Source of the DNA: Chloroflexota bacterium
GTDB taxonomy: Bacteria; Chloroflexota; Limnocylindria; Limnocylindrales; CSP1-4
Assembly (NCBI GenBank): GCA_040389445.1
Contig: JAZJZX010000014.1
Span: 130,744 to 194,743, forward strand
DNA length: 64,000 bases
Direction of reading: 5' to 3'
Part shown: positions 11,552-27,347 of the stretch, piece by piece
How the letters are laid out: the number at the start of each line of letters is the position of its first letter
Numbering within the stretch: position 1 is the first letter of the stretch
The notes under the pieces: generated by a model
The model's database searches: none
The model's input: the letters and a program-made list of their open reading frames with translations, nothing else
What the model was told of the DNA's origin: nothing
Made by a program: the position numbers and the translations under genes

Positions 11552-11783
11552 CGAGCCCGTGCCCATCGCATGGCAAATGGCAGGTAGGTATGCGGTGGGT
11601 GCTGGACGGATCGAGGGATGGGAACTCCAGGAGGGCGTGCCGGGTCGCACGACGGGCGCCTGTCCAACCGGGCGCAGGTGCCGCGCCTGACCGTAGGTGA
11701 GGCTCGCCGGGCTGTCAAACGGCCCCACGAGGCGCCCGACCAGGAGCGGCGTGTCACATTTCGGCAGCGTATCATCGGCGCCG

Positions 11784-12497
11784 ATGTGCGAGCACTACGT
11801 CGCCCGTAGCGCGTCCCCGTTCCGGCTCGACGAGCTCTGGGCGTTCACCGACCGCCTCGAGCGCTACGGCATCGCCGGGTTCGGATGGGGTGCCGCCTGG
11901 ATTGACCCATCGGGCCAGATCCGGAGCCATCGGGATGTACGCGCCTTTCGCGACGATCCGGGCCGGGAGGCGGTCGGTCATGTCGAGACCACGGCGGCCC
12001 TCGTCCACCTCCGCCGCCCGTCCCGGATGTCCACGCTCGGCCTGAACGACACCCAGCCATTCGACGACCCGAAGGGCCGCTACAGCTTCAGCCACAACGG
12101 GGATCTCCTGAACTACACGTCGTTGCGTGCTCATTACCGGTCCCAGGGTCGCCTGCTCGGCCGTGCCGACACGGAAGTCGCAGCCCGATGGCTGGAAGAT
12201 GCGTGGCACGAAGGCGAGCCCGTCCCGCACCTGCTCGGGGCGTTGCACGACGCCTTCGGCGGCCAGGCCAACCTCGCCCTGCTCACAGCCGACGGCGGGA
12301 CGCACCACTACGCCGGCAACCGCGAGAACCCGGTCTTCACGTTCCGGCTGGGGTCGATCGGGATCGCCGGCACGGGCATCTACTCGCTGGATCGGTCGGT
12401 GTTCAAGTACGTGGCCCATGGCGCCACGGATCGCCGGCTGGTGAAGGTTCGCACCACGGTTTTCCTCGCGCCGGACGGCCATCCGGCGGCCGCGTAG
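11784..12497 (+). CDS. Class II (Ntn-type) glutamine amidotransferase, YafJ/EgtC-like
   Basis: The internal ATG at 11784 gives an N-terminal Met-Cys (MCEHYVA…), the hallmark nucleophile of class II amidotransferases. The protein would be ~237 aa. Confidence 0.55.
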   Translation: MCEHYVARSASPFRLDELWAFTDRLERYGIAGFGWGAAWIDPSGQIRSHRDVRAFRDDPGREAVGHVETTAALVHLRRPSRMSTLGLNDTQPFDDPKGRYSFSHNGDLLNYTSLRAHYRSQGRLLGRADTEVAARWLEDAWHEGEPVPHLLGALHDAFGGQANLALLTADGGTHHYAGNRENPVFTFRLGSIGIAGTGIYSLDRSVFKYVAHGATDRRLVKVRTTVFLAPDGHPAAA

Positions 12498-12634
12498 GAC
12501 GCTGCAACGACCACCGTGCCGCCGCGCAACGGCCGGGTATCGGACGTCACCCATCGACCACGTGTCGGCCCGCGTAACGGCCGCCCCTTTCCGGCGTCTA
12601 TCGACCAGCCTGGCAACGAGCGGAGAGAGGAGAC

Positions 12635-13966
12635 ATGGACGTGGAGCTGGCGTACACAGCCGCCGATTCCGCCGAGGGTGACCGGCCCAGCGCGGATCTG
12701 CCCACCACGCAGCTGGTCCGACTGTCGCTCTACTGGCTCGGCCTCTCCAGCATCTTCACGGGTCTCACGGCGATCCTTTCCGGCCGGATCCAGTTCGCCG
12801 GGCTCGGTGAACGCGGGTCCGAGGGCACAACCCTCTTTGCCCTGAACTTCGCCGGCGCGCTCATTGCGGCGCTGGTACAGCCGACCGTCGGATCCATCTC
12901 CGACTACACCATCTCAAGGTGGGGCCGTCGCAAGCCCTACGTCTTCATCGGGTCGGTGCTCGATGTCCTGTTCCTGTTCGGGATCGCGACCTCGAACACG
13001 ATCGTGTCGATCGCGGCCTTCATGGTCCTCCTCCAGGTCAGCGCGAACTTCGCGCAGGGTCCGTTCCAGGGCTATGTGCCGGACCTCGTGCCGAAGCGGC
13101 AGGTCGGCACGGCTTCGGCGCTGGTTGGCCTGTTCCAGGTCCTCGGCAACGTCGCCGGGTTCGGGATCGGATCGTGGGCCGTGGCCACCGGCGACTTCTT
13201 CACCGGCACGATGGCCCTCGGGGCATTGGAGCTGGTCACGATGCTGTCGGTCGTCTGGCGCGTCGCGGAAGGTCGGACCGCGCGGCCGCGGGAGGGCAAG
13301 TCCTGGCCGACCATTGCGCGGGAAGCATGGGGCACGGACATCCTGCGCGAGCGGTCGTTCATATGGCTCGTTGGCTCGCGCTGGTTCGTGCTGATGGGCG
13401 CCAACATGCTCGTCAATTTCGCGACCTTCTACCTGGCGCAGACCTTTGCCCTGAGCCAGGCCGACACCGGCGGTTCGAACCTCGTGCTGCTCGCGGGAAC
13501 GGTCCTCGGCAATGTGGTTGCGGTGATACCGGCGGGACGGCTGTCCGACCGGATCGGGCGGAAGCCGGTCATCTACGCCGCATGCGCCGTGGGCGGCACC
13601 GGGATGGCCGTCGTGGCGGTTGCCCCGGTCATGCCCGTGGCGGTGGCCGGGGCGGCCCTGTTCGGTGCCGGCGTGGGGATGTTCCTCGCGGTCGACTGGG
13701 CGCTCATGACGGACATCATTCCGAAGGCCTCGTCCGGACGATACATGGGCATCAGCAACGTGGCCACCGCGACCTCGGGGATCGTGGCGGTGATGTCCGG
13801 CGGCCTCCTCATGGACGCGGTCAACCGCGGACTCGGGTACGGCCAGGGGCCCCGTTTCGCCTTCGGGCTGGCGGTCGTCTACTTCGCCGTCGGCGCCCTG
13901 CTGCTTCGGCCGGTCGTCGAGCCGAGGCACTCCGGGCGCGTCGGGTCTCCGAGCGGCTCGATCTGA
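12635..13966 (+). CDS. MFS transporter
   Basis: 443 aa with about 12 predicted hydrophobic helices. ATG at 12635 is preceded by GGAGAGAGG. Typical MFS loop motifs are present. Confidence 0.75.
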   Translation: MDVELAYTAADSAEGDRPSADLPTTQLVRLSLYWLGLSSIFTGLTAILSGRIQFAGLGERGSEGTTLFALNFAGALIAALVQPTVGSISDYTISRWGRRKPYVFIGSVLDVLFLFGIATSNTIVSIAAFMVLLQVSANFAQGPFQGYVPDLVPKRQVGTASALVGLFQVLGNVAGFGIGSWAVATGDFFTGTMALGALELVTMLSVVWRVAEGRTARPREGKSWPTIAREAWGTDILRERSFIWLVGSRWFVLMGANMLVNFATFYLAQTFALSQADTGGSNLVLLAGTVLGNVVAVIPAGRLSDRIGRKPVIYAACAVGGTGMAVVAVAPVMPVAVAGAALFGAGVGMFLAVDWALMTDIIPKASSGRYMGISNVATATSGIVAVMSGGLLMDAVNRGLGYGQGPRFAFGLAVVYFAVGALLLRPVVEPRHSGRVGSPSGSI

Positions 13967-14091
13967 TTTGACGGGCCGCTCCGTCGCCCATCAGGGCGGG
14001 ATGCAGCGCCTCCACCGGCAGGAGGATCGGACCCGTCTCGCATCGGACCGTCGCCTTCGGCCACGCTCCGCCGGTATACTCCCGCGCAATC

Positions 14092-14931
14092 ATGAGCGAC
14101 GGCACGGTCATCATCATCGGCGGCGCTGAGGACAAGATCCGGGACCGGATCATCCTCAATCGGTTCGTCGCCCTCGCGGGCGGCGACGAGGCGATCGTGG
14201 CCGTCATCTCGACGGCATCGTCGCTGGGTCCGGAGGCCGGCGATCGGTACCGTCAGATCTTCACCGAGCTGGGCGTGAAGACCATTCGCCCGCTCCATGC
14301 GATGACGCGGGCGCAGGCGAACGACGAAACCTTTGGGCGCGCCGTCCGCGATGCCACCGGCATCTACCTCACCGGCGGAAATCAGCTGCGCCTGTCGTCC
14401 ACGATCGGGGGCACCCGCCTGGCGGAGGCCATCCTCGAGCGATTCAAGCACGGGGCAGTCGTGGCCGGGACGTCGGCCGGGGCCTCCGCGATGTCGAGTC
14501 ACATGATCGCCTTCGGCGCCTCGGGCGCCACGCCCAAGCACCGGATGGCGGCGATTGCTGCCGGGCTGGGCGTGTTGCCGGGCGTGATCGTCGATCAACA
14601 TTTCCAGCAGCGAAATCGGCTCGGTCGGCTGCTGAGCCTGATCGCCCAGAACCCGAGCCTGCTCGGGATCGGCGTGGACGAGGATACGGCCGGCGTCGTG
14701 GGGCCGGACCACGTCCTGGAGGTGATCGGTCGCGGCAGCATCACCATCGTCGACGGGGCCGCGGCGGAGACCGACGCCTGGGACGTCCGGGGACATCGTC
14801 CGGTCATGCTGAGCGGGGTCGTCCTGCACTCGCTGCCGGCCGGCTATCGGTTCGATCTCCGACGACGACATCGCATCACCGGACCGGCACTCAAGGCTCT
14901 TCCGGGCGGCGAGGCCGCAGCATCCAGCTAG
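14092..14931 (+). CDS. cphB: Cyanophycinase CphB (peptidase S51)
   Basis: 279 aa with S51 signatures (IIGGAEDK…, TGGNQ, GTSAGA) and the size expected for cyanophycinase. It lies immediately upstream of cphA. Confidence 0.8.
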   Translation: MSDGTVIIIGGAEDKIRDRIILNRFVALAGGDEAIVAVISTASSLGPEAGDRYRQIFTELGVKTIRPLHAMTRAQANDETFGRAVRDATGIYLTGGNQLRLSSTIGGTRLAEAILERFKHGAVVAGTSAGASAMSSHMIAFGASGATPKHRMAAIAAGLGVLPGVIVDQHFQQRNRLGRLLSLIAQNPSLLGIGVDEDTAGVVGPDHVLEVIGRGSITIVDGAAAETDAWDVRGHRPVMLSGVVLHSLPAGYRFDLRRRHRITGPALKALPGGEAAASS

Positions 14932-14965
14932 CGTCGATCAAGCGCCGGTTGCGCCGGCCTGAAGC

Positions 14966-17794
14966 GTGAGGACTGCCATCGTGGCCAAGGCCGCCGGGAA
15001 GACCAGCCGAACCAGGCGCGTCGGCGGCGCCCAGCTCGGCGGCGCCCCGCTCGGCCGTCCCTCGCCCGACCTGCGCGTGCTCGAGACACGCATTCTGCGC
15101 GGCCCCAACTTCTGGTCCCGCTCGCCGGTGGTGCGGATGCTGGTGGACCTCGGTTCACTCGAACAGTTCCCCAGCAACACGATCCCCGGGTTCGTGGAGG
15201 GCCTCGTGGCCTGGATTCCGTCCCTGGAGGATCATGCCTGCTCGCTCAATCGGCGGGGAGGGTTCCTGACCCGCCTCCGTGACGGAACCTGGGCCGGCCA
15301 CGTCTCGGAGCACGTCGCACTCGAGCTCCAGAACCTTGCCGGCACGGATGTCCGCCACGGCAAGACCCGCGGCGCCGGATCGGTCGGCCAGTACAACGTG
15401 GTCTACGAGTTCCGCGAGGAACTGGTCGGCATCGAGGCGGGCAAGTTCGCCGTCCGCATCGTCAACCATCTCGTCGATCCCGCTTCGGATCCCGACCTCG
15501 ACTACCTGACCGAGCTCGAACGCCTCATCCGGCTGGCCGAACGGGCCGCCTTCGGACCCTCGACCCAGGCGATCCTCGACGAGGCGGCATCCCGGGACAT
15601 TCCCTTCATCCGGCTCGATCGCCACTCGCTCGTCCAGCTCGGCCAGGGCGTTCACCAGCAGCGCATCCGGGCCACCATGACCTCGCGCACCTCGGGGATC
15701 GCGGTCGATGTCGCGAGCGACAAGAACCTGACCAATCGGCTGCTCGATTCCGCGGGTCTGCCGGTCCCGAAGGCCGATGTGGTCGAGGACGTCGAGGCGG
15801 CGGTTGCGACTGCCCGCCGACTCGGCTTCCCGTGCGTCCTGAAGCCTCTCGACGGGAACCACGGCCGAGGTGTCCACCTGGACCTCCAGTCGGACGACGA
15901 GGTTCGGGCGGCCTTCGATGGGGCCCTTCGCGAGTCACGATCGGGCGAAGTGGTCGTCGAGACCTACATCCACGGCAACGACTACCGCTGCCTGGTGATC
16001 GGCGGAAAGGTTGCGGCCATCGCCGAACGCGTACCAGCGTCGGTGGTCGGAGATGGATCGGCCACGGTCCACGAGCTGGTCGACCGGACGAATGCCGACC
16101 CGCGGCGCGGCATCGGGCACGAGAAGGTCCTGACCAAGATCAAGCTCGACGACGCGGCGATCGAGCTCGTTCGCGAGCAGGGTTTCGACCTCGACGCCGT
16201 CCCGCCCGCCGGGACGCGGGTGAAGCTCGCCCTGACCGGCAACATGTCCACCGGCGGTACGTCCATCGACCGGACGCTCGAGGCACATCCGGACAACGTG
16301 GAGATCGCCGAGATGGCGGCCCGGGTCGTGGGCCTCGATGTCGCCGGCATCGACTTCATCTGCCCCGACATCACGGTGCCCGTCCGCGAAACCGGGGGCG
16401 CCATCGTCGAGGTCAACGCGGCGCCCGGCTTCCGCATGCATACCCACCCGACGGAGGGCGAGCCGCAGTACGTGGCCCGGCCGGTCATCGACCTCCTCTT
16501 TCCCGCTGGTGCGCCGTCGCGCATCCCGATCATCGGTGTCACCGGTACGAACGGGAAGACCACGACGGTCCGGATGATCGCCCACATCCTCAAGCTCATG
16601 GGTCGGCGTGTCGGGATGACCTCGACCGACGGCATCGTGGTGGATGGCCGGATGATCAAGCGGGGCGACATGTCCGGTCCGAAGTCGGCCCGGATGATCC
16701 TCCAGAACCCCACCGTGGACACGGCGGTCTTCGAGGTTGCCCGGGGCGGGATCCTTCGCGAGGGCCTCGGCTACGACCGGAACGATGTCGCGGTCGTGAC
16801 GAACGTGACCGGCGACCACCTCGGACTCGGCGGGATCGACACCGTGCGGCAACTCGCGGACGTCAAGGCGGTCCTCGTGGAGGCCGTGCCGAGATCCGGG
16901 ACCGCGGTCCTCAACGCGGACGATCCGAACGTCGCGCGGATGGGCCAGCAGTGCGACGGGGCGGTCATCTACTTCTCCATGGAGACCAACAAGGGCGAGC
17001 CCGGATTCGATCGCGTCGACGGCCATTGCGGTCGAGGCGGGGCCGCGTTCATGGTCCGCCACACGCCCGAGGGAGACCAGATCGTCCTCCGCCATGGACC
17101 CCGGGTGATGCCGGTGCTGTACACGCATCTGATTCCGGCGACCTTCGGCGGCAAGGCTCGGATGAACGTCGCGAATGCACTCGCGGCGGCGGCTGCGGCA
17201 TGGGCGTCGGGCGCGCACCTCCACGACATCCGGCAGGGCCTGCGGACCTTCACGACGTCGTTCTTCCAGGCGCCGGGCCGGCTCAATCTCGTCGAAGTCG
17301 GCGGCGTCCGCGTCGTCATCGACTACTGCCACAACGTGGATGGGATGCGGAACCTGTCCGACTTCGTGAACCGGATGATGTCCGACAGCGGTATGCGGTC
17401 GGGCCGCGCCATCGGCGTGATCGGCGTCCCGGGCGACCGCCGCGACGAGGACATGCGCGACTACGGCGGCCTGGCCGCCACGGCGTTCGACGAGATCATC
17501 GTCCGCGAGGATCGCAATCTTCGGGGTCGCGCTCCGGCCGAAACATCGGCACGCGTGCTGGAGGGGATCGGGCAGGCGCGCGCGGCGGGCGCTCGAACGG
17601 AAAAGGCCGAGGAAATTCTCGACGAACTCACGGCGGTGCGGGCAGCCCTTGGTCGGGCCAAGCCGGGCGACCTCCTGGTCATGTGCGTCGATGACGCCAT
17701 CAGTGTCTACCGCGAGACGATGGCCACGGCAGGGCAGGGCCTCGGAACCACGGCCTTCGCCGATCCGGGTGAAATGGAGGCGCCGGAAGGCTGA
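14966..17794 (+). CDS. cphA: Cyanophycin synthetase CphA (N domain, ATP-grasp G domain and Mur-ligase-like M domain)
   Basis: The N-terminus is RILRGPNFWS… The ATP-grasp region reads …CVLKPLDGNHGRGV… and the Mur-ligase P-loop is GVTGTNGKTTT. The first possible start is GTG at 14966. Alternative starts are GTG at 14981 (preceded by GAGGA) and GTG at 15077 (best match to the canonical MKILKTQTLRGPNYW N-terminus). Confidence 0.85.
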   Translation: MRTAIVAKAAGKTSRTRRVGGAQLGGAPLGRPSPDLRVLETRILRGPNFWSRSPVVRMLVDLGSLEQFPSNTIPGFVEGLVAWIPSLEDHACSLNRRGGFLTRLRDGTWAGHVSEHVALELQNLAGTDVRHGKTRGAGSVGQYNVVYEFREELVGIEAGKFAVRIVNHLVDPASDPDLDYLTELERLIRLAERAAFGPSTQAILDEAASRDIPFIRLDRHSLVQLGQGVHQQRIRATMTSRTSGIAVDVASDKNLTNRLLDSAGLPVPKADVVEDVEAAVATARRLGFPCVLKPLDGNHGRGVHLDLQSDDEVRAAFDGALRESRSGEVVVETYIHGNDYRCLVIGGKVAAIAERVPASVVGDGSATVHELVDRTNADPRRGIGHEKVLTKIKLDDAAIELVREQGFDLDAVPPAGTRVKLALTGNMSTGGTSIDRTLEAHPDNVEIAEMAARVVGLDVAGIDFICPDITVPVRETGGAIVEVNAAPGFRMHTHPTEGEPQYVARPVIDLLFPAGAPSRIPIIGVTGTNGKTTTVRMIAHILKLMGRRVGMTSTDGIVVDGRMIKRGDMSGPKSARMILQNPTVDTAVFEVARGGILREGLGYDRNDVAVVTNVTGDHLGLGGIDTVRQLADVKAVLVEAVPRSGTAVLNADDPNVARMGQQCDGAVIYFSMETNKGEPGFDRVDGHCGRGGAAFMVRHTPEGDQIVLRHGPRVMPVLYTHLIPATFGGKARMNVANALAAAAAAWASGAHLHDIRQGLRTFTTSFFQAPGRLNLVEVGGVRVVIDYCHNVDGMRNLSDFVNRMMSDSGMRSGRAIGVIGVPGDRRDEDMRDYGGLAATAFDEIIVREDRNLRGRAPAETSARVLEGIGQARAAGARTEKAEEILDELTAVRAALGRAKPGDLLVMCVDDAISVYRETMATAGQGLGTTAFADPGEMEAPEG

Positions 17795-17845
17795 TCCTCT
17801 CGGCCGGAAGGCTGATCCTCTCGGCCGGAAGGCTGATCCTCTCGA
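17783..17845 (+). repeat. Perfect tandem repeat, 3 x 21 bp (ccggaaggctgatcctctcgg), straddling the cphA stop codon
   Basis: Read directly from sequence: copies at 17783-17803, 17804-17824 and 17825-17845 (last base differs). Each copy carries an in-frame TGA relative to cphA. Confidence 0.9.
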
Positions 17846-17864
17846 GCCGAGTCCGGGCCCCGGG

Positions 17865-17954
17865 TCAGCGCCCCAGATTCAGGTTCGCGCTGACGGCCCT
17901 GACGATGACCCAGATCTCGACGGCCGAGATCACGACGAGCGCGATACCGATTGC
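17865..17954 (-). CDS. Candidate 29-aa hydrophobic small protein (MAIGIALVVISAVEIWVIVRAVSANLNLGR)
   Basis: An ATG-initiated ORF nested in a longer ORF-track entry, with GC-rich third codon positions and a single transmembrane-like helix. GGAG lies immediately upstream. It is 160 bp downstream of the cphA-like gene. Very tentative. Confidence 0.2.
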   Translation of the reverse strand, partial: AIGIALVVISAVEIWVIVRAVSANLNLGR

Positions 17955-18113
17955 CATCTCCACGGGGCAGATCCTCCATCCATTCCGACCGCCGATGAAC
18001 CGGCGCTGGGGTCCATGATGCGGTTCGCGCGTCGGCGCCGCAACGCATTTCCGCAGCCCTCCGTGGCCCGGGGCCCGGGGCCCGTGCTGCGCGCCGCGAT
18101 GCACGGTCCCTCC

Positions 18114-19868
18114 CTACCGTCGTGGGCGATCCTCGAGGCGCGGCGCCAGGCTGATCAGATCGGCCGCCGTCTCGACCGGCCGGAAATGGAGGTCGCGCAG
18201 GAGCGCGAAGACGCCCGTCCGATCCTCGTGGCACAGCAGCACCACGATCCGGGCCGCGTCATGGCGCGATCCGTCCGCTGCTGCCGCCGCGCCGTTGAGC
18301 TCGGCCCTGAGTGCTGCAACTTCGGTCTCATAGATCGGGATGTCCCGGGTCCAGCCGCCCAGGTTCGCTCCCGCCCGCAACTCCCCGACCACCGCTTCAC
18401 GCGAACGGCCCCGCAGGTACCCGAGCGTCTCCTTGAAGGCCAGCCGCTGCGCACGCCGGGCGGCGATCCTGCCCATGCCGCGCAGCGTGTCATCGGGCCG
18501 ATCTCCCGCGGTCCCCACGATCACCGTGATCGGGGTCACGCGGCCGCCTGCTCCACCGGCGATCCCCTCGGCGACGTCGAGGACCGCCTCGAGCCCGGCT
18601 TCGTTGTGCGCGAAGTCCACGATCGCGACGCGTCCGCCGTTGCGAAAGATGTTCATGCGCCCCGGGGATTCCTCCGCGTTCGGGCGGAAATCGAGCAATC
18701 CGCGCCGAACCTCGTCGTGGCTCGCGCCGAGGGCCCGTGCCCCGGCGGCCGCCGCGAGCGCGTTGGCGATGTTGTGCCCGGCGAGGCCGCCCATCGTGAT
18801 CGGAACTTCGCGCACGCCGGCGATCGGCGTCCATCGATCGCCTTCGGCCTCGCCGAGCTCGCCGCGTCGCACCAGGTAGGCGCGGCCACCGGCTGCAAGG
18901 TGGCGGCGCATCGGGGTGGACACAGCACCGCGATGGGAGAACAGGGCCACCCTGGCGCGCACGGTGCGCGCGACCGCGCGCACGAACGGATCGTCGGCGC
19001 TGAGGATGACCCAGCCATCGGGTTTGGTGATCCGGCAGATGGTCGCCTTGACCTCCGCGAGCTCCGGCAGCGTATGAATCCCCTGCACGTCGAGGTGGTC
19101 CGAGCTGACATTCGTCAGGATGCTCGCGTCGTTCGATTCGTAGCCGAGGCCCTTGAGAACCAGGCCGCCGCGCGCGGTTTCGAGGACCGCGACGTCCACG
19201 TCGGAGCGGGCCAGGATCTGGTGCGCGCCGCCCGGCCCGGTCCAGTCGCCGGGATCGACCATGCGCTCATCGACCAGGACGCCATCCGACGTGGTCGTGC
19301 CGACACGGCGCCCGGCCAGCAGGAGGATCCGCGTGATCAGTCGGGTCGTCGTTGACTTGCCGTTGGTCCCGGAGATCGAGATGATCGGAATCCGGCGATC
19401 CGTGTCGCGGATCCATGACGGGGGTGACGCCGACGCTTGTCGAATACGATCCGTCCATTGGGCGAGGAGACGTTCCTGGGATCCCGTCAGGCGCGCCCGC
19501 CGGGCCGGCGTGGCCGCCCGATCCGTGAGTGACGCCGCAGCTTCCGCGACCAGCCGTGCCCGCTCGGCGCCCACCCACGGCCAGGTCAGGATCCAGTGGC
19601 CGGGATCGGACGAACGGTGGGCGCGGATGCCTCCGATGCCCTCGCCGCGGGCGGATCTGAGGCGTCGTGCCCAACCCGCCAGCGTGATCACGGGCTCCGG
19701 CCAGTCCCGTGCCGGGACGCCCGCGCCGAGGCGGACGAGGGCATGCCGTGCCGGAATCCGCTGACCGAACCAGGTTCGGCGCCGCCCGATCGCGACCTCG
19801 ACCTTGACCACCGGCTGAAGCCGGTAGACGCTGGGGCCCTCCAGGAGACGGATTTCGATCAGTCGCAC
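18114..19868 (-). CDS. Cyanophycin-synthetase-like protein: CphA N-domain fused directly to a Mur-ligase (M) domain, with no ATP-grasp domain
   Basis: The N-terminus (VRLIEIRLLEGPSVYRLQPVVKVEVAIG) parallels the CphA N domain. After ~160 aa comes a Mur-ligase domain with an intact P-loop (ISGTNGKSTTT). This domain is clearly homologous to the M domain of the adjacent cphA (…LETARGG…TNVSSDHLD…). The probable start is GTG at 19868; the ORF is open to 20018. Confidence 0.7.
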   Translation of the reverse strand: MRLIEIRLLEGPSVYRLQPVVKVEVAIGRRRTWFGQRIPARHALVRLGAGVPARDWPEPVITLAGWARRLRSARGEGIGGIRAHRSSDPGHWILTWPWVGAERARLVAEAAASLTDRAATPARRARLTGSQERLLAQWTDRIRQASASPPSWIRDTDRRIPIISISGTNGKSTTTRLITRILLLAGRRVGTTTSDGVLVDERMVDPGDWTGPGGAHQILARSDVDVAVLETARGGLVLKGLGYESNDASILTNVSSDHLDVQGIHTLPELAEVKATICRITKPDGWVILSADDPFVRAVARTVRARVALFSHRGAVSTPMRRHLAAGGRAYLVRRGELGEAEGDRWTPIAGVREVPITMGGLAGHNIANALAAAAGARALGASHDEVRRGLLDFRPNAEESPGRMNIFRNGGRVAIVDFAHNEAGLEAVLDVAEGIAGGAGGRVTPITVIVGTAGDRPDDTLRGMGRIAARRAQRLAFKETLGYLRGRSREAVVGELRAGANLGGWTRDIPIYETEVAALRAELNGAAAAADGSRHDAARIVVLLCHEDRTGVFALLRDLHFRPVETAADLISLAPRLEDRPRR

Positions 19869-19937
19869 AGTCCCGGCAGGATAGCAACGCGCCCCCGATC
19901 GAAGTCCGGTCGTCTCGTCACGCCCTACACTCCCGGC

Positions 19938-21254
19938 GTGACTACTTCCACCGCACCCGGGAGCGGCGTCAGCCCGGATGAACTCAGGGCTCTCGAAGCG
20001 ATCGTCACCGTCGGCCATCTTCGATTCCTCGCCGAGCTCGAGCGGCTCTGCAACATCGATTGCGGCAGCTACTCACCCGCAGGCGTCAACGAGGTCGCAG
20101 CGTGGGTCGAGGCTGCGTTCCGCGACCTTGGCGGCGAGGTGGAACGACGGCCGGACCCGTCCGGGCGCTACGGCGATACCGTCATCGGCACGTTCCGAGG
20201 CCGTGCCGGCGCCGGAAGCCGTGCCGGCACCGGGAACCCAGCCGTCGCCGGGAGCCGTGCCGGCACCGGAAGTCCAGCCGGCACCGGACCACGCGTCCTG
20301 CTGATCGGGCACATGGACACGGTCTTCGCCGACGGCACCGTCGCGGAACGTCCGTTCTCGATCGATGGCGACATCGCCCGCGGCGCGGGTGTGACCGACA
20401 TGAAGGGTGGGCTCCTGGCCGGAATCCATGCGCTGGCGGCTCTTCGTCAGCTGGGAGGCGGGGACTGGGCCGAGCTGCCGTTCGAACGGATCACCTACAT
20501 CGCCAATCCGGACGAGGAGATCGGCTCGCCGAGCTCCACGCCGCACATTCGTGATCTCGCCGCCCAGTCGGACCTCTGCCTCGTGCTGGAGTGCGCCCGC
20601 GCCAACGGCGATTTCGTGTCCTCCCGCAAGGGGATCGCGGATCTTCGACTGAGCGTGCACGGCCGCGCCGCCCACGCCGGTGTCGAGCCTGAGGTCGGGA
20701 GGAACGCGATCCTCGCCGGTGCCCGGATGGTCGAGCGGATCCAGGGGCTGAACGGTCGCTGGGCCGGCGTGACCGCCAACGTCGGTGTCTTCCAGTCCGG
20801 ATCCCGACCGAACATCGTGCCGGATCTGGCCAATCTCGAGGTGGACGTTCGAGGCGTCACGCGCGTGGAGCTCGACGAGGCCGTCGCCGCAATCCACGCG
20901 ATTGCCGCCGAACCGGGCGTGCCGGACGTAACCGTCGAGATCACCCAGATGGCCGGCTGGCAGCCGATGGAAAAACTCGAACGGTCCGGCCGGCTGGCCG
21001 ACCACGTGACGGCGATCGCGGGGCGGCTGGGCTTCCCGACCACCGATGTCGGGACCGGCGGCGCCTCCGATGCCAACACCACGTCCGGAATGGGCGTCCC
21101 GTCGATCGACGGCCTCGGTCCCGTCGGTGGTCGCGACCATTCACCGGACGAGTACCTCGAGATCAGCTCCATCGTCCCCCGGACGACGCTGCTCGCCGCG
21201 CTGCTCCTGGCGGCGGGACGGGACCCGGTCGTCGCGGGCTGGCGCGAACGCTGA
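19938..21254 (+). CDS. M20-family metallopeptidase (carboxypeptidase/dipeptidase-type)
   Basis: M20 signatures are present: LLIGHMDTVF, …DGDIARGAGVTDMKGG… and a dimerisation domain. The probable start is the in-frame GTG at 19938 (VTTSTAPGSGVSPDELRALEAIV…). This leaves a 69-bp divergent intergenic region with the cphA-like gene. Confidence 0.75.
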   Translation: MTTSTAPGSGVSPDELRALEAIVTVGHLRFLAELERLCNIDCGSYSPAGVNEVAAWVEAAFRDLGGEVERRPDPSGRYGDTVIGTFRGRAGAGSRAGTGNPAVAGSRAGTGSPAGTGPRVLLIGHMDTVFADGTVAERPFSIDGDIARGAGVTDMKGGLLAGIHALAALRQLGGGDWAELPFERITYIANPDEEIGSPSSTPHIRDLAAQSDLCLVLECARANGDFVSSRKGIADLRLSVHGRAAHAGVEPEVGRNAILAGARMVERIQGLNGRWAGVTANVGVFQSGSRPNIVPDLANLEVDVRGVTRVELDEAVAAIHAIAAEPGVPDVTVEITQMAGWQPMEKLERSGRLADHVTAIAGRLGFPTTDVGTGGASDANTTSGMGVPSIDGLGPVGGRDHSPDEYLEISSIVPRTTLLAALLLAAGRDPVVAGWRER

Positions 21255-21264
21255 GGCTGGGCTC

Positions 21265-21639
21265 GTGCCGCGCCGGCGGGTCAGCTCGGGCAGCCCCTGG
21301 GAGGGTCCCTACGGCTACAGCCGCGCTGTGGTCGTCGGGGACACCTGCTGGGTGGCCGGCACCACGGATCCCGGTTCGGCGCATCCCGATGATGCCGCCG
21401 CCCAGGCACGGGAAGCGCTCGGGATCATCGAACGGGCTCTGGCCGAAGTGGGGTTCAGCCTGGCCGACGTGGTCCGGACCCGGATGTACGTGACCGATCC
21501 CGCCCACGCCGCCTCGGTCGCGGAGGTGCACGGGCAGGTCTTCGGCGCCATCCGCCCCGCCGCGACCCTCGTGGTGGTCGCTGCGCTCATCGAACCCGGG
21601 CTGCTCGTGGAGATCGAGGTCGACGCCGTGCGTGGCTGA
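21265..21639 (+). CDS. ridA: RidA/YjgF family protein
   Basis: The C-terminal 124 aa (…SPWEGPYGYSRAVVVGDTCWVAGTTD…RMYVTDP…) match RidA-family size and motifs. GTG at 21265 starts 11 bp after the M20 stop. Confidence 0.6.
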   Translation: MPRRRVSSGSPWEGPYGYSRAVVVGDTCWVAGTTDPGSAHPDDAAAQAREALGIIERALAEVGFSLADVVRTRMYVTDPAHAASVAEVHGQVFGAIRPAATLVVVAALIEPGLLVEIEVDAVRG

Positions 21640-21667
21640 GCCCGCTCGCGACCCATGGCGCTCCGTC

Positions 21668-22000
21668 TCAGGCGATCCCCGCGGAGCGAGCGACGGCGGC
21701 AATGGCGGCGGCGCCCACGAGCCCGACCAGGAGGCCACGCCGGACCGCCACCAGGACGACGCAAGCTGCGACGGCCAGCCATTCGATCCCCACGTGGAGC
21801 GACGGATTTCGAACGGCATCGATCGAGACCATCACGTTCACGGCCGCCAGCGCCGCGAGAATGGCAGGACCCACCAGCCCCACGTACTCCTTGACGCGGA
21901 GTGGAAGGCGATGGATTCCCGGCGCGAGAAGCGGAGCGGCACGCCACGGATAGGTCACCGCCCCCATGAGCAGCGCGAGCCAGACAAGGTCCGTCTTCAC
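21668..22000 (-). CDS. azlD: Branched-chain amino acid transport protein AzlD
   Basis: 110-aa hydrophobic protein. Its start overlaps the azlC stop by 4 bp. Confidence 0.7.
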   Translation of the reverse strand: MKTDLVWLALLMGAVTYPWRAAPLLAPGIHRLPLRVKEYVGLVGPAILAALAAVNVMVSIDAVRNPSLHVGIEWLAVAACVVLVAVRRGLLVGLVGAAAIAAVARSAGIA

Positions 22001-22824
22001 GAACCTTCGGCTCCGGCTTGTGCGGACGGATCGTCGCTACCGGGAGGGAACAGGCCCTGCGACTCGAGCGCGCGGTCGCGCGGTCCGGGAGGCGTGACCA
22101 TCCCGATCAGGGGACCAATCAGCCCCCCGGCGAGGATTCCCGCGGCGGGATCGGAGGCCAGGCCGACGCCGACGGCGACGACGGCACCGCTCAGGCCCGC
22201 GACGAGCTCGCGACGCCCCGTGATCAGGCCGACTGCCAGGCCTGCCATCGCCGCCGGAAAGACGACATCGAGGCCGTAGCGGGACGGATCCGGGATCTGT
22301 CCGCCCACGATCACGCCCACCAGGGTGGCCAGGTTCCACGGAATGAACACGGTGGCGATGGCTGCCCACCAGTAGCCGCGCTCGTCGCCCCGTCCGATCC
22401 GTCGGAAATGCGCGATCGACAGCGCAAACGCCTCGTCCGTCAGGACGTGGGCCATCACCGCGCGAACGGGCCGTGGACGATCGGCCAGATAGGGGGCGAG
22501 CGCGGCGCCGTACAGGAAGTGACGCGCGTTCAGGAATGCGGTCAGCAGGACGACCCCGAGCCACGAGAAGCCGCCGAGCACATAGCCGATTGCTGCGAAC
22601 TGGGCTGCGCCCGCAAAGACGAGCACGGACATCGCGCTGGCTTCGATGGGGGAGAACCCGGCCGCGCGGGCCGCGAGTCCGTAGACGAGCCCGAAACCGA
22701 GCGCCGTGGCGATGATGCCGAGACCGTCCAGGCGCAGTTTCCGACGGGAGGTGGCGACCTCGGCGTCGGTCGCGGGCCGCGATCGGCCGGGCGGAGGCGT
22801 CAGCGCAGGTAGGTCTTCGCGCAT
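21997..22824 (-). CDS. azlC: AzlC family branched-chain amino acid permease
   Basis: Multi-helix membrane protein with AzlC-type motifs (…MSVLVFAGAAQFAAIG…). The true start may be downstream of 22824. Confidence 0.7.
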   Translation of the reverse strand: MREDLPALTPPPGRSRPATDAEVATSRRKLRLDGLGIIATALGFGLVYGLAARAAGFSPIEASAMSVLVFAGAAQFAAIGYVLGGFSWLGVVLLTAFLNARHFLYGAALAPYLADRPRPVRAVMAHVLTDEAFALSIAHFRRIGRGDERGYWWAAIATVFIPWNLATLVGVIVGGQIPDPSRYGLDVVFPAAMAGLAVGLITGRRELVAGLSGAVVAVGVGLASDPAAGILAGGLIGPLIGMVTPPGPRDRALESQGLFPPGSDDPSAQAGAEGS

Positions 22825-23072
22825 GTCCCGTCGCAGACGACGAAGACCGCGTGGAGATCACGGGCGTAGCCGGCCGCGTGCAGGAAGCCCGGGCACCCGG
22901 CAGTCGGGCATTTCCAGACCCACCAGCGGTCGTTTGGGTCGAGGGGTGTGGTCTCGGCCGCGAGCGTGGCGGCCAGGCCATCCCGTGATCCGACGAGGGC
23001 GTTGAGCACGGCCGTGCGGTCGGCGTCCGACTCGCTCGAGTAGGGGTAGCTCTGGCCGACGTTCGAGGTCAC
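22800..23072 (-). CDS. Small Cys-rich hypothetical protein (…WWVWKCPTAGCPGF…VCDGTCAKTYLR)
   Basis: The only non-overlapping coding-looking segment between ggt and azlC, with the GTG at 23072 as the first start after the ggt stop. It carries a CxxxC…CxxxC pair (possible zinc ribbon). Weak call. Confidence 0.25.
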   Translation of the reverse strand: MTSNVGQSYPYSSESDADRTAVLNALVGSRDGLAATLAAETTPLDPNDRWWVWKCPTAGCPGFLHAAGYARDLHAVFVVCDGTCAKTYLR

Positions 23073-23136: not shown

Positions 23137-24810
23137 TCACCATGCGGCAGGGAGCCCGGCACTGCGAGGGTCGGTGGTCGCGGCCACGGAGCCCTCCGCG
23201 TCGGACGGACCCCCTCGCACCAGCTCGATCGCATGCTGGTGGCCCAGCCAGCCGTCGAAGGGCGCGGTTCGGACGACCGCGTGCCCCATGGCCTCGAGGG
23301 CTTCGAGGACGCCCGGAGCGAACCGCGGTTCGGCACGCACGGCATCGGGCGGTGCGAAATGCTCCGCCGATTCCACGAACCACCGCGGCGCCGCCACGGC
23401 CGACTGGATCCCGAGTCCTCCGTCAACCAGGGCCGTCACCAGCTGGGCATGGACCTGGGGCTGGGCATCGCCACCCATCGCACCGGCCACGACCCACGGT
23501 CGATCCGGGTCGCGGAACAGCATCCCCGGCAGGAGGGTATGCAACGTCCGCTTGCCCGGCGCAAGGACGTTCGCGTGGCCGGGGTCGAGGGAGAAGTAGC
23601 TGCCGCGATTCTGATAGTGGATCCCGGTGTCCGGGTCCACGACCCAGCTCCCGAAGCCCAGGTAGTTCGACTCGATCAGGCTGACCGCGTTGCCCGCGTC
23701 GTCGACCACGCCGAGGTAGGTCGTTCCGCCGCCGCGCCGATTCGTCGAGGGCGCCGGCCGCGTCGCGCGATCGCTCGGAATCCGCGCGGCGAGATCCGCC
23801 GCGTAGGCCTTGTCGAGCAGCCGCGCGACCGGGACGTCGTGCTGTTCGGGATCCGTCAGATGTCGGTCCCGATCCTCGATGGCCAGCTTCGAGGCCTCGA
23901 TGACCCGGTGGATCCAGCGATGGTCGGCCACGCCGGCCGCGGTGAAGGTGGCGGCATCGGCCGGGCCGCCGGCCTCGAGGATATTGAGGATCTCGAGGGC
24001 CACGATCCCCGAGGAATTCGGCGGATGCGTCGTGACCCGGACCCCGTGGTAGGTCGTCTCGATCGGTTCGGTCCACGTGGAGGCATGGCGTGCGAAGTCC
24101 GCGGCGGTATGCGAGCCACCAAGCGCTGCAAGGGCGACGGCCTGGCGCTCGCCCAGGTCGCCCTCGTAGAACGCGTCCAGGCCCTCATGGGCGAGACGCC
24201 CGAGGGTTCGGGCGAGGGCCGGCAGACGAACCCGTTCCCCGGGCTCCCAGGCCCGTCCGAAGGGGCGGTACACCTGTCGCAACCCGGACCCCGCCCCGAC
24301 CGCCTGGTCGGCCAGCAGAACCGTTCGCTCCACCGCGTCGATGAACCCCTGCCACGCCGGAAACCCGCCGGCTGCGAGTTCGATCGCCGGTGTCAGCAGC
24401 GCATCCATCGCCAGGCGACCGAACCGGGCGTGAGCATCGCGCCACGACCGGACCGCGCCGGGGATCGTGACCGACAGCGCCCCTCGGAGCGGGAGGCCAT
24501 CCAGGCCCCGGGCCCGCAGCGCCGCGGCGTCCACCCCGAACGGGGCGCGCCCGGACCCGTTGAGCGCCAGCTGTCGCCTCCCTGCCGCGTCCCAGATCAA
24601 CCAGAACGCATCACCGCCGATGCCGCAGCCATTCGGCATGACGACCGCGAGGACGGCATTCGTCGCGATCGCCGCGTCCACGGCATGGCCGCCCTGACGC
24701 AGGATCGCGAGCCCGGCGGCCGTCGCGAGGTGATGGGGCGCCACGACGGCGCCGCGTGCGCCGCGGGCCAGGGGCACCGGCACCAGCGGTGCAACGCCGG
24801 AGTCGGTCAC
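23137..24810 (-). CDS. ggt: Gamma-glutamyltransferase
   Basis: 557 aa. The GGT N-terminus is …HHLATAAGLAILRQGGHAVDAAIA… and the autoprocessing region is …RGGGTTYLGVVDDAGNAVS…. Confidence 0.85.
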   Translation of the reverse strand: MTDSGVAPLVPVPLARGARGAVVAPHHLATAAGLAILRQGGHAVDAAIATNAVLAVVMPNGCGIGGDAFWLIWDAAGRRQLALNGSGRAPFGVDAAALRARGLDGLPLRGALSVTIPGAVRSWRDAHARFGRLAMDALLTPAIELAAGGFPAWQGFIDAVERTVLLADQAVGAGSGLRQVYRPFGRAWEPGERVRLPALARTLGRLAHEGLDAFYEGDLGERQAVALAALGGSHTAADFARHASTWTEPIETTYHGVRVTTHPPNSSGIVALEILNILEAGGPADAATFTAAGVADHRWIHRVIEASKLAIEDRDRHLTDPEQHDVPVARLLDKAYAADLAARIPSDRATRPAPSTNRRGGGTTYLGVVDDAGNAVSLIESNYLGFGSWVVDPDTGIHYQNRGSYFSLDPGHANVLAPGKRTLHTLLPGMLFRDPDRPWVVAGAMGGDAQPQVHAQLVTALVDGGLGIQSAVAAPRWFVESAEHFAPPDAVRAEPRFAPGVLEALEAMGHAVVRTAPFDGWLGHQHAIELVRGGPSDAEGSVAATTDPRSAGLPAAW

Positions 24811-26189
24811 GAATCGTTACCCAGGACCACCGGCGCGCCGGGACCCAGGTAGTGCTCCATGGCACGGAGCCGGGACAACGGGATCAGCGCCACCGCCAGG
24901 AGGGCACCGGTCGCGAGCAGCAGGCCGTCCATGCCGAGACCGTCGGCCACCACGCCGCCGATGAGGCTGCCACCGATCTGGCCGAGTGCGAGAAAGACCG
25001 AGTACAGGCCCATGATCGCCCCCCGATCCTCGGGAAACCGCTCGCTCACGTCGGCCAGCAGTCCGACCGCAGCAGGAGTGGCACCTGCCAGCAGGAACAG
25101 TCCTGCCGCGAAGGCGAACGCGGCGATCGCGACGGCCCCGGCGACGATGACGGAACCCCCGGCCGCAAATCCCCCGTGATTGACGACGAGGCCGGCGGCG
25201 ACGAGCCCAAGTCCCCCGACCACGCCGAACCCGATGATCGTGGTCCGCCGGAACCGGTTGAAGCGATTGCCCCACCAGAGGATGCCGGCACCGAACACGA
25301 TCGCGATGCAGATCGCACCGAGCGTGATCTGGGTCGCCGAGAAGCCCTGCAGCAGCCACTGGTTCGGAAACGCGGGGTTTCGCTTCGAGAACTGGAAGAG
25401 GGACTGGCTGAACCACAGGCCGATCGCGGCATTCACCGCGATCCAGGTGGGGGCCAGCAGCAGGACGTGGGAATGCCCGATCAGGGCAAGGTAGCGCCCG
25501 AGCCCGCCGGCGTTCGTGGCTCTGGGAACCGGCACGGCATGGGCATCCGCCACACCGAACCGGTAGATCAGGAAGGAGCCGATATAGATCAGCGCATTGA
25601 GCAGGAAGGCATTGGCGCCGAGCGCCTCGAAGAGCAGCGGGGCGACGATGAACCCCGCACCGAGGCCGGCCAGCGTCGCCCCCTCGAATCGGGCGGATGC
25701 CTTGCCGCGAAGCGATTCGTCGCCGGCGGTGGCCAGCGCAATGAAGCCGAGGATCGCGGGGATCGACGCCGCGGACGACGCGCCTTCGAGGATGCGTGTC
25801 CCGCCCAGGATCCCGACATGCGTGGTCAGCGCGGTCAGGACGACGGCTACCGCACCGAAGGCGGGTCCGTACAACATCACGCGACGATGACCCACCCGAT
25901 CGGCGAGGATCCCGAAGACCGGTGACAGCACGAGTTCCGCGAGGTAGAACATCGCCGCCAGCGCGCCGACCACCTTGCCGTCGATGCCGCCCGTTCCCGC
26001 GGCGGCGAGGTCGGCGAGGTAGAACGCAAGCATCGCGCCGGTCAGTCCGGTACTGAAGCGAAGCGTGAAGGTCCCGAACAGGACCGCCCGCAGGGATCGT
26101 TCCATCCCGGAAGGGTAGCGGGTCGCACCTGGGGGAATCGATCTGGCCGTGGACATCAGGCCTTCGGCCACTCCGATTCTTGTATCCAT
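24807..26189 (-). CDS. MFS transporter
   Basis: About 12 transmembrane helices. The stop overlaps the ggt start by 4 bp. The start may instead be the internal M (MERSLRAV…) at 26105. Confidence 0.7.
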   Translation of the reverse strand: MDTRIGVAEGLMSTARSIPPGATRYPSGMERSLRAVLFGTFTLRFSTGLTGAMLAFYLADLAAAGTGGIDGKVVGALAAMFYLAELVLSPVFGILADRVGHRRVMLYGPAFGAVAVVLTALTTHVGILGGTRILEGASSAASIPAILGFIALATAGDESLRGKASARFEGATLAGLGAGFIVAPLLFEALGANAFLLNALIYIGSFLIYRFGVADAHAVPVPRATNAGGLGRYLALIGHSHVLLLAPTWIAVNAAIGLWFSQSLFQFSKRNPAFPNQWLLQGFSATQITLGAICIAIVFGAGILWWGNRFNRFRRTTIIGFGVVGGLGLVAAGLVVNHGGFAAGGSVIVAGAVAIAAFAFAAGLFLLAGATPAAVGLLADVSERFPEDRGAIMGLYSVFLALGQIGGSLIGGVVADGLGMDGLLLATGALLAVALIPLSRLRAMEHYLGPGAPVVLGNDS

Positions 26190-26265
26190 GACGCGGCACG
26201 GCCCGTATCATCCCGGCTACGCAGGGCTGCCGCAGAACAGCGGCAGCGACCCGGAGGGAGACGCA

Positions 26266-27120
26266 GTGAGTCACGTAGCCATCGTCACGGATTCCGCATC
26301 CGATCTCGATCCGGCGCGCGCCGCCTCGCTCGGCATCATCGTCGTCCCGCTCGTCGTGACCTTCGGAACCGAGACCTTCAAGGCCGGCGTCGAGCTTTCC
26401 ACGGCGGACTTCTGGGCCCGGATGACGGCGCCGGACGCACCCTTCCCCACCACCGCCGCATCGGCGCCCGGGGATTTCCTGGCCGCCTACCAGGCGGCGT
26501 TCGATGCCGGCGCCGATGCCATCGTGTCCATCCACGTCGCGGGCACGCTGTCGGGAACCATCAAGAGCGCCGAGATCGCCAAAGGGCTGCTGCCCGGCAA
26601 GGAGATCCACATCGTCGACACCATGGGCGCCTCGATGTGCGAGGCGCTGCTGTCCGAGATCGCTGTCCGGATGGCCGAGGCGGGCAACACTGCGGCAGAC
26701 ATCGCCCGGGCGTGCGAGGACCGACGGTCGGATGTCGCCATGATGGTTGCCCTCGACACGCTCGAATACCTGAAGCGGGGCGGCCGGATCAGCGGCGCCC
26801 AGGCGGCGATCGGTACGCTGCTGTCGCTGAAGCCGATCATCGAGGTCAAGGACGGCAAGGTCGAGACCGTCGACAAGGTGCGAACCCGCGGCAAGGCCCG
26901 GGAACGAGTGATCGAGCTGCTCATCACGCGCCCCATGGAACGACTTTCCGTCCTGCATACCACCAACGCCGATGTCGAGGCATTTCGAGACGAGCTCGTG
27001 GCGCGGGTGCCGGGCGGGATCGACCCATCGATGGTGACCGTCGACCTGGTGGGGCCGTCGGTCGGACCGCATCTCGGACCGGGGTGTGTCGGGGCGGTGG
27101 TCCTCTACCGCCGGGCGTGA
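26266..27120 (+). CDS. DegV family (fatty-acid-binding) protein
   Basis: The N-terminus is VSHVAIVTDSASDL and the protein shows a typical DegV fold. GTG at 26266 is preceded by GGAGGGAG. Confidence 0.75.
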   Translation: MSHVAIVTDSASDLDPARAASLGIIVVPLVVTFGTETFKAGVELSTADFWARMTAPDAPFPTTAASAPGDFLAAYQAAFDAGADAIVSIHVAGTLSGTIKSAEIAKGLLPGKEIHIVDTMGASMCEALLSEIAVRMAEAGNTAADIARACEDRRSDVAMMVALDTLEYLKRGGRISGAQAAIGTLLSLKPIIEVKDGKVETVDKVRTRGKARERVIELLITRPMERLSVLHTTNADVEAFRDELVARVPGGIDPSMVTVDLVGPSVGPHLGPGCVGAVVLYRRA

Positions 27121-27347
27121 CGCGCCGTCGCGGGCCATTCGGCCCGTGCTCCTGAAGGTTGCGGCACGGTTACGAACAGGATTCCGGCAGGTGCCGGCCG
27201 GACGCGTGCCCGGCTATACTCCGGTCGCATTCCGCGCGTGAGGCGTACCGCTGGTCGGGCGCGCGTCGCGCACCGTGGGGTCGTCCGGGAGACGGCTCAC
27301 CATTCGGTCCGGCGATGGTCGGCCCGAGCCGGAGGAACTCCGCACAC

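Follow-up and report, generated by a model that had tools for sequence, protein, structure and literature searches.

The stretch of DNA analyzed here (the window; 64,000 nucleotides of contig JAZJZX010000014.1 from a Chloroflexota bacterium of the Limnocylindria, G+C content ~70%) encodes a canonical pair of cyanophycin genes and, next to them, a second and shorter member of the cyanophycin synthetase family. An identical protein is recorded from a Chloroflexota metagenome-assembled genome with close relatives classed as Candidatus Limnocylindrales. The canonical pair consists of the cyanophycinase gene cphB (14092..14931, + strand), whose product contains a Peptidase_S51 domain and scores 258 bits against TIGR02069, and the cyanophycin synthetase gene cphA1 (14966..17794, +), whose product contains the amino-terminal (N), ATP-grasp (G) and Mur-ligase (M) domains, scores 1142 bits against TIGR02068 and retains both the Cx19HxxEH motif and the catalytic residues of the M domain. 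Both scores are above the respective cut-offs, in line with an earlier note on this DNA that described the two genes as canonical; translation of cphA1 probably begins slightly further in, a few codons past 14966. Convergent with cphA1 is the gene of interest (18114..19868, - strand, stop codon included), which encodes a 584 amino acid (aa) paralog of cyanophycin synthetase without an ATP-grasp domain, referred to below as the N+M protein. A 69 bp intergenic spacer (19869..19937) separates it, as the note had also described, from a divergently transcribed M20 metallopeptidase gene of the carboxypeptidase G2-like type (from a GTG at 19938 to 21254, +).

Pfam, TIGR02068, PDB and tblastn searches agree with the earlier reading of the N+M protein as a CphA-type N domain joined to a Mur-ligase M domain with no ATP-grasp domain in between. 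In Pfam, Mur_ligase_M (PF08245; aa 165-375, 70 bits) and Mur_ligase_C (PF02875; aa 403-525, 33 bits) are matched above their cut-offs, and no ATP-grasp family is found. TIGR02068, the cyanophycin synthetase equivalog, is matched only at model positions 474-838, which correspond to the M domain, and the score of 355.5 bits falls below the curated cut-off of 850 bits. Likewise, a phmmer search of PDB aligns the protein to CphA1 residues 484-809 only (7txv/7lg5, E 5e-69). A tblastn comparison of the G domain of the adjacent CphA1 with positions 17800-21300 in six frames gave nothing better than E 0.06, which rules out a frameshifted or degenerate ATP-grasp segment between the N and M domains or near the gene. 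With the G domain absent and the M domain full-length and equipped with its catalytic residues, the protein is neither CphA1 nor CphA2, as had been proposed. Its identity to the M domain of the adjacent CphA1 is lower than the ~45% first given, at 37% over 411 aa (BLASTP) or 40% over 339 aa (tblastn).

This is a genuine and intact gene that is under selection. The open reading frame is uninterrupted from 18114 to 20018 (-), and the start was set to the GTG at 19868 because homologs begin with MRLIEIR. More than 100 full-length homologs of ~584 aa, 68-85% identical, are found in independent Chloroflexota assemblies, and an alignment of 24 of the N+M homologs is colinear with a mean column identity of 77%. 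The sources of homologs in this check included megabase-scale contigs and complete genomes; mis-assembly or a pseudogene is ruled out by the more than 100 colinear homologs together with the complete genomes of cultured Kribbella and Terrabacter. A hidden ATP-grasp domain, a truncated or mis-assembled cphA and degenerate catalytic residues, which the earlier note had named as grounds for rejecting its reading, were each looked for and none was borne out.

The N domain (aa 1-145; 19434..19868, -) is highly divergent. Pfam PF18921 does not match the N region even at E<=10, and BLASTP against the adjacent CphA1 aligns only 39 aa at the extreme amino terminus (33% identity, E 3e-4). A profile-profile comparison (hhalign) of 26 N regions of the N+M family with 16 CphA1 N domains, however, gives a probability of 97.9% and E 4e-13 over 139 columns. 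On this profile evidence the N region is a true, divergent CphA-type N domain, whose homology is recovered in no other type of comparison; the assignment made earlier thus stands at the profile level, while PF18921 is blind to it and pairwise similarity is confined to the first ~40 aa. In an AlphaFold2 (AF2) model of the protein (pLDDT 76, pTM 0.68), the N region adopts a beta-beta-alpha-beta-beta-alpha-alpha arrangement. The GP(N/S)-hydrophobic loop is kept. The most conserved N-domain positions across the N+M family, L9, G11, P12 and N13, coincide with the GPN-Y14-I17 loop of SuCphA1, which is described as touching the M domain (PMC9262961). The same source reports that the CphA1 N domain binds the cyanophycin polymer, and that the Cx19HxxEH zinc-peptidase motif renders CphA1 primer-independent (PMC9262961). 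This zinc site is absent from the N+M protein and present in the adjacent CphA1 (C...HVSEH).

The M domain (18114..19394, -) is complete, with Mcore at aa ~159-375, Mlid at aa ~403-525 and a carboxy-terminal tail. Its P-loop, which had been noted as intact, reads GTNGKST (aa 167-173; 19350..19370, -) and is accompanied by the other Mur-ligase catalytic residues. In an HMMER alignment to SuCphA1, K171, S172, S194 and E230 correspond to CphA1 K499, T500, T522 and E558, K171 being the equivalent of the catalytic K499 of TeCphA1; these four residues are reported to bind ATP and Mg in TeCphA1 (PMC9427784). When 56 N+M proteins were compared with 74 CphA1 M domains, the P-loop, E230, N253, D257/H258, K274, R404/N406 and D418/H421/N422, as well as GDR455-457 and RGR486-488, were found to be conserved in both sets. 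With every ATP, Mg and catalytic residue intact, the N+M protein is predicted to be catalytically competent. It has all the hallmarks of the Mur ligase superfamily (Mur_ligase_M and Mur_ligase_C, a GxxGK[ST] P-loop, an Mg-binding Glu and a DH motif), and within this superfamily it is closest to CphA1: the best MurE models score 94-102 bits, below their cut-offs of 257-476, and the best PDB folds for the AF2 model are CphA1 chains, with MurE trailing in Foldseek (1e-16 versus ~1e-31). Among these chains, 7lgj_A gives E 9.5e-32 with 607 matched columns, but at an rmsd (root-mean-square deviation) of 19.7 A, versus ~410 columns at 3.2 A for the M-only 7wae_A.

Four positions that are invariant or nearly so in CphA1 are changed in the N+M proteins (numbering of the window CphA1). 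S574 is replaced by G, R826 by T, P, S or A, and F841 by A, P or S, and D829 is variable. R826 and D829 are located in the GDRRDxD loop of CphA1, and the equivalent loop of Escherichia coli MurE (1E8C), GGDRDKGKR, contributes to the amino acid substrate site. A changed substrate of ligation is plausible from these replacements, and the reaction of the N+M proteins is probably not a plain copy of Arg addition by CphA1, because the amino acid/acceptor pocket differs.

The architecture is not peculiar to the window. The survey for N+M-only homologs that the earlier note had called for, in which 1.84 billion cluster representatives were searched exhaustively with HMMER, shows them to be widespread. 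Two groups can be distinguished. Group 1 comprises many proteins of 530-590 aa that align with the window protein from end to end at 35-45% identity; group 2 comprises proteins of ~560-580 aa that align from the P-loop on and share an xRxLxGPN start. The N regions of the two groups are homologous (hhalign 97%, E 1e-10), and in the ~570 aa group 2 proteins of loci L041, L069, L072 and L063 the amino terminus reads MRLxDSRRLTGPN. The family is delimited here as proteins of ~530-600 aa that have a CphA-like N region of ~150-185 aa directly joined to a CphA-like M domain and that cluster with one another and not with CphA1 in an M-domain tree; the window protein belongs to it. Species genomes in GTDB were scanned with the shared P-loop pattern, and the matches listed form a sample and not a census. 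Full-length group 1 genes among these matches are found in Chloroflexota (L002, L007, L011) and Actinomycetota (L003-L006, L008-L010, L013, L015, L032), the latter including the complete genomes of the cultured Kribbella sp. NBC_00889 (NZ_CP108783, ortholog around 3.62-3.64 Mb) and Terrabacter sp. BE26.

A neighbor-joining analysis of 132 M domains places every N+M protein in a single clade that excludes the M domains of all full-length CphA1s, and the CphA1s that have an N+M neighbor fall into two adjacent CphA1 clades. Crude as this midpoint-rooted tree is, a single N+M clade argues against a recent local cphA duplication followed by loss of the G domain, and points to an old paralog that has been co-inherited with a subset of cphA1 genes instead of repeated recent deletions. 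Automatic annotation labels the family as 'cyanophycin synthetase' (JGI) or 'Mur ligase family protein' (NCBI). In NCBIfam release 20, the window protein, the Kribbella protein (L005), the Plesiocystis protein (L072) and P0141 (see below) give only sub-threshold CphA matches, and no model covers them. DUF4938 (PF16292) does not match the window protein at E<=0.01; it matches three of 14 group 2 relatives at this threshold, of which P0210 passes the gathering score of 32 bits (102 bits, aa 4-273) and P0187 falls below it (30.9 bits). One relative, P0174 (745 aa), is an N+M protein with a carboxy-terminal TPR domain (TPR_5), which hints at protein-protein interactions for some members.

Of particular interest is the genomic association of the N+M genes with cyanophycin genes, which was mapped by searching the window proteins (tblastn) against all loci and three further Limnocylindria contigs. 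A cphA1 gene is located within 1-9 kb of the N+M gene in the window and in L002, L003, L005, L008, L009, L010, L011, L013, L015, L032, L082 and L083, and cphB is within the same distance in each of these group 1 loci except L008. This amounts to ten of the 12 N+M-centered loci with enough flanking sequence among the matches listed, plus L082 and L083. The group 1 genes are convergent with cphA1, and the G domains of the linked CphA1s are ~70% identical to that of the window in the Actinomycetota loci and 82-92% identical in L011 and L002. Group 2 genes follow cphA directly and in the same orientation in Lysobacterales (L041, 11342-13048), Steroidobacteraceae (L069, 11353-13065) and the myxococcote Plesiocystis pacifica SIR-1 (L072, 11413-13188), and the M-domain tree groups a Luteimonas gene (L063, around 11323) with this cphA-downstream set. 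The link to cyanophycin genes thus holds in Chloroflexota and Actinomycetota for group 1, and in Lysobacterales/Steroidobacteraceae and Myxococcota for group 2. The other flanking genes in Actinomycetota have housekeeping functions (fabG/inhA-type short-chain dehydrogenases/reductases, moaA, SURF1, DUF3099, serB), which leaves cphA1/cphB as the sole functionally suggestive conserved neighbor. A different arrangement is seen in the beta-proteobacterial loci L046, L052, L056, L057, L064, L067, L074-L076 and L081, which contain two tandem full-length cphA genes with N/G matches ~2.6 kb apart; these match the cphA/cphA' arrangement reported for beta-proteobacteria, a solution different from an N+M partner.

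A gene fusion provides a further connection. P0141 (972 aa, in two database records) consists of a CphA1-type M domain fused to a group 2 N'+M' unit, with both P-loops intact; its CphA1-type M domain is 52-55% identical to the M domains of Lysobacterales/Myxococcota CphA1s. The gene (L085, 8001-10919) is from a proteobacterial metagenome-assembled genome (GCA_947446595.1, 34% G+C) and is followed directly by cphB and an Asparaginase_2 (IaaA-type) gene; the available 17 kb of L085 showed no ATP-grasp domain. Such a fusion constitutes a Rosetta-stone argument that would tie the N+M proteins to cyanophycin; the locus may represent a cyanophycin cluster that has no G domain at all, or one in decay.

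Compensation for an inactive CphA1 M domain can be rejected as the role of the N+M protein. At 24 positions checked, all 17 CphA1s of the two clades that hold the N+M-linked enzymes, most of which have an N+M neighbor, keep the ATP/Mg-binding and catalytic residues, and the only departures are single substitutions at S574, F841 and G854 in three loci. Since the M domains of the partner CphA1s are intact, the N+M protein is no replacement part.

The linkage is not universal. No cphA is found within 8-10 kb of the N+M gene in the Limnocylindria loci L001 and L084, where the position of cphBA (L001, 9912-17148; L084, 10781-19752) is held by an ABC transporter of the SBP_bac_8/TOBE_2 type, an Amidohydro_3/Amidohydro_1 protein and an arginase, that is, genes of arginine and amino acid catabolism. 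In L007 (Sphaerobacteraceae), the N+M gene (3482-5116) is solitary among genes for ParB, a CAAX protease, Ogt, a sigma factor, an MR/MLE enzyme, MreB/MreC and MurT, with no cphA within 10 kb.

The M20 peptidase encoded next to the N+M gene contains the Peptidase_M20 and M20_dimer domains, and its metal-binding and catalytic motifs (HMDTV, TDMKGG, PDEEIGS, DHSPDEY) are invariant among orthologs. Its nearest structure is carboxypeptidase G2 (1cg2, E 3e-43) and its best NCBIfam match is the glutamate carboxypeptidase PRK06133, at 271 bits under the cut-off of 349 bits. Within this gene, an in-frame 18/36 bp tandem repeat (20200-20288) encodes a 24 aa insertion rich in Gly, Ala, Ser, Thr and Pro (SRAGTGNPAVAGSRAGTGSPAGTG) that is specific to the window, being absent from the orthologs in L001, L082 and L083. 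Downstream of the M20 gene are a RidA-family gene (~21250-21639, +, start uncertain), AzlD (21668-22000, -), AzlC (21997-22824, -), gamma-glutamyltranspeptidase (GGT; 23137-24810, -), a major facilitator superfamily (MFS) protein (24807-26189, -), DegV (26149-27120, +) and glutamate dehydrogenase (27159-28613, +). The divergent pair followed by this entire series occurs in the window, L001, L082, L083 and L084, and L002 has the part from M20 to AzlC and the MFS gene, with no match to GGT. Upstream of cphB are a gene for a stand-alone class II glutamine amidotransferase-like protein (11781..12497, +; N-terminal nucleophile type with a Met-Cys start, no NCBIfam match) and one for an MFS transporter (12635..13966, +), preceded by an isoamylase gene (9410-11728, -). 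The amidotransferase-like and MFS genes also precede cphB in L002, L082 and L083, and are lineage-specific neighbors that might have a role in dipeptide or amide handling.

The earlier note had assembled the N+M gene, cphBA, the M20 peptidase, the amidotransferase and the transporter into one extended cyanophycin module. The association of the N+M gene with cphBA holds, but tblastn of the M20, RidA, AzlCD, GGT, MFS and amidotransferase proteins against all loci gave matches in Limnocylindria loci only, so that the M20 pairing, the amidotransferase and the MFS transporter are confined to this lineage and M20 is rejected as a universal partner of the N+M protein. The M20-N+M pair is also kept without adjacent cphBA (L001, L084). 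The pairing is weak as functional evidence, because a block of ~10 genes is syntenic in the lineage anyway. That the peptidase hydrolyzes beta-Asp-X dipeptides, as had been suggested, is a guess. We know of no M20 enzyme tied to cyanophycin. The cyanophycin dipeptidases named in the literature are IadA, IaaA and the M14-type CphZ (PMC9974463).

Several smaller features were observed around the gene. A small open reading frame (17865..17957, -) with a GGAGGA ribosome-binding site directly follows the N+M gene in the same orientation, ahead of the cphA stop, and encodes a hydrophobic 30 aa product (MAIGIALVVISAVEIWVIVRAVSANLNLGR). Conserved copies that show synonymous-type changes are present in L002, L082 and L083, two of which have it annotated as a gene; it is probably a real small membrane protein gene co-transcribed with the N+M gene. 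A 21 bp tandem repeat (17782-17849; 3.2 copies, 97% matches) spans the last codons and the stop of cphA1, so that the 3' end of this gene is reiterated downstream. On the other side, an in-frame 'CYPAGTV' upstream of the N+M start (19869-19900) resembles extensions in P0054 (CYPRGIV) and P0087 (CYPARTV), so that part of the 69 bp spacer is conserved at the DNA level, possibly as promoter or ribosome-binding elements. An Rfam search of 11000-23000 found nothing.

The end of the chain, (beta-Asp-Arg)n-Asp, lies in CphA1 in the groove that N and Mcore form. We tentatively favor, while granting that it may well be wrong, a role for the N+M protein as a stand-alone ATP-dependent side-chain ligase that would act in trans on the free Asp carboxylate of cyanophycin or its fragments. 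In such an enzyme, a CphA-type N domain without a zinc-peptidase site would pack on a full M domain, and the protein would bind a cyanophycin chain or fragment made by the neighboring CphA1 in the same groove as CphA1 does. ATP would then be used to phosphorylate the free Asp carboxylate, and an amino acid would be ligated to it in trans to CphA1. Because it has no ATP-grasp domain, the protein could not extend the backbone. Its donor or acceptor specificity would probably be unlike that of CphA1, and candidate reactions include the addition of a different side-chain residue, capping and the repair of bare Asp; the addition of a second amino acid or re-arginylation, both put forward earlier, is compatible with the predicted activity. 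The family may catalyze a distinct step on cyanophycin, such as the addition of a non-Arg residue or end capping/repair, in which case the cyanophycin of many bacteria would be modified or controlled in length, or, more radically, backbone or primer formation, and this we consider rather unlikely; in the radical version, a CphA1-type M domain plus N'+M', as in the L085 fusion, would be a complete cyanophycin synthetase built from Mur ligases only.

A number of observations weigh against a trans-acting side-chain ligase. Identity to CphA1 in the N-domain alignment is only ~15%, confidence in the AF2 model is medium (pLDDT 76; low at residues 30-47 and 195-267), and the substrate assignment comes from homology and gene neighborhood. 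The matches listed from the genome scan are a sample, and no cphA is near the N+M gene in L001, L084 and L007. Moreover, the two genes may be adjacent in part because both descend from a duplicated cphA, and the fully intact M domain of the partner CphA1 leaves the need for a second side-chain ligase unexplained.

Other explanations were therefore weighed. The N+M protein might join free amino acids, for example Asp and Arg to give beta-Asp-Arg, or form another isopeptide or N-acyl amino acid, in which case its product would be primers or a soluble nitrogen compound and, in Limnocylindria, the carboxypeptidase G2-like M20 enzyme would hydrolyze the same bond. The divergent M20-N+M pair, which each of the six fully covered Limnocylindria loci contains, two of them without adjacent cphBA, would suit such a cycle, as would the similarity of the peptidase to an enzyme that removes a carboxy-terminal amino acid from an acyl group and the difference of the incoming-amino-acid loop from that of CphA1. 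A dipeptide-forming enzyme would also be the conceptual complement of CphA2, described as a dipeptide polymerizer (PMC10273328). We nevertheless regard this as unlikely, though it deserves some weight: retention of the N domain that anchors the polymer, and of its docking loop, is hard to reconcile with a small substrate, the loci of Actinomycetota, Proteobacteria and Myxococcota lack M20, the adjacent CphA1, with its primer-generating Cx19HxxEH, should need no external primers, and no CphA2 is present.

It is also possible, if quite improbable, that an ancient cphA duplicate has become a ligase unrelated to cyanophycin, with another carboxylate substrate, for instance a cell-envelope or other peptide, and that the cphA neighborhood is a relic. 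The solitary gene among ParB, Ogt, sigma factor, MreBC and MurT genes in L007, the loci without cphA (L001, L084) and the age of the clade, which is just ~35-40% identical to the M domains of CphA1, are in keeping with this. A relic arrangement, however, is not expected to last at such depth, and four phyla preserve the linkage to cphA1/cphB, in two orientations (convergent in group 1, co-directional and downstream in group 2), while the fusion to a CphA1-type M domain adjoins cphB and an iaaA-like gene. A non-catalytic partner (a scaffold, regulator or granule protein that attaches to cyanophycin or CphA1) seems very unlikely, since residues for ATP, Mg and catalysis that are invariant or nearly so in more than 50 members are unexpected for an inactive scaffold; the idea draws on the N domain being a known polymer-binding module (PMC9262961) and on CphA2, in which family domains are seen to turn purely structural (PMC10273328). 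As for a truncated cphA pseudogene or an assembly artifact, nothing more than the unusual architecture speaks for it, and a continuous reading frame, more than 100 colinear ~584 aa homologs and the lack of a G-domain remnant in any frame make it barely conceivable.

Comparison with known systems places the N+M protein within the cyanophycin synthetase family but apart from its described members. With CphA1 (TIGR02068; 7LG5/7LGJ/7WAE) it shares a homologous N domain, a complete M domain of 37-43% identity with intact residues, and the association with cphB; it differs in lacking the G domain and Cx19HxxEH, in the replacement of S574, R826, D829 and F841, and in its separate M-domain clade. In CphA2, the G domain is reported to be active and the M domain truncated and inactive (PMC10273328). 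Both proteins are reduced members of the family with an N domain and one catalytic activity (predicted, in the case of the N+M protein), but the reduction is the opposite one, with a full, active-looking M domain and no G domain. The Mur ligases (MurC-F, Mpl, FolC, MurT, PgsB/CapB) have in common with it Mur_ligase_M and Mur_ligase_C, the P-loop and the acyl-phosphate ligase residues, whereas the MurE score is ~100 bits versus 355 for the cyanophycin synthetase model (NCBIfam) and the amino-terminal domain is CphA-type and not UDP-binding. DUF4938, likewise uncharacterized, spans the N region and the start of the ligase domain in some relatives, but the window protein has no match to it and no function is attached to it. 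The M20 enzyme resembles carboxypeptidase G2 (M20A; 1CG2) in its catalytic and dimerization domains and conserved metal and catalytic motifs, yet it is below the NCBIfam glutamate carboxypeptidase cut-off.

An N+M-only enzyme is not described in the literature searched, including cyanophycin synthetase papers of 2024-2026 and relevant papers of the Schmeing laboratory and of Miyakawa, although a brief mention in the 2021 CphA1 structure paper or a 2023 Nat Prod Rep review is possible. No NCBIfam or Pfam model describes the family, apart from partial DUF4938 matches in a few relatives. Literature and family-model searches thus agree with the earlier impression that the arrangement had not been recognized before, and the N+M proteins are an uncharacterized and widespread third architecture of the cyanophycin synthetase family. 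One practical consequence concerns databases, as the JGI label 'cyanophycin synthetase' cannot hold for N+M proteins.

In the current view, four kinds of enzyme suffice for cyanophycin metabolism: CphA1 or CphA2, cyanophycinase and isoaspartyl dipeptidase. A conserved side-chain-only ligase with intact catalytic residues, linked to cphA1/cphB across at least four phyla, probably means that there is an undescribed extra step, be it modification, repair, capping or priming. The presence of the gene in cultured Kribbella and Terrabacter makes this question directly testable. If a different amino acid is indeed added, the natural heterogeneity of cyanophycin would be explained, and the enzyme would be a tool for tailored cyanophycins, a stated biotechnological aim.

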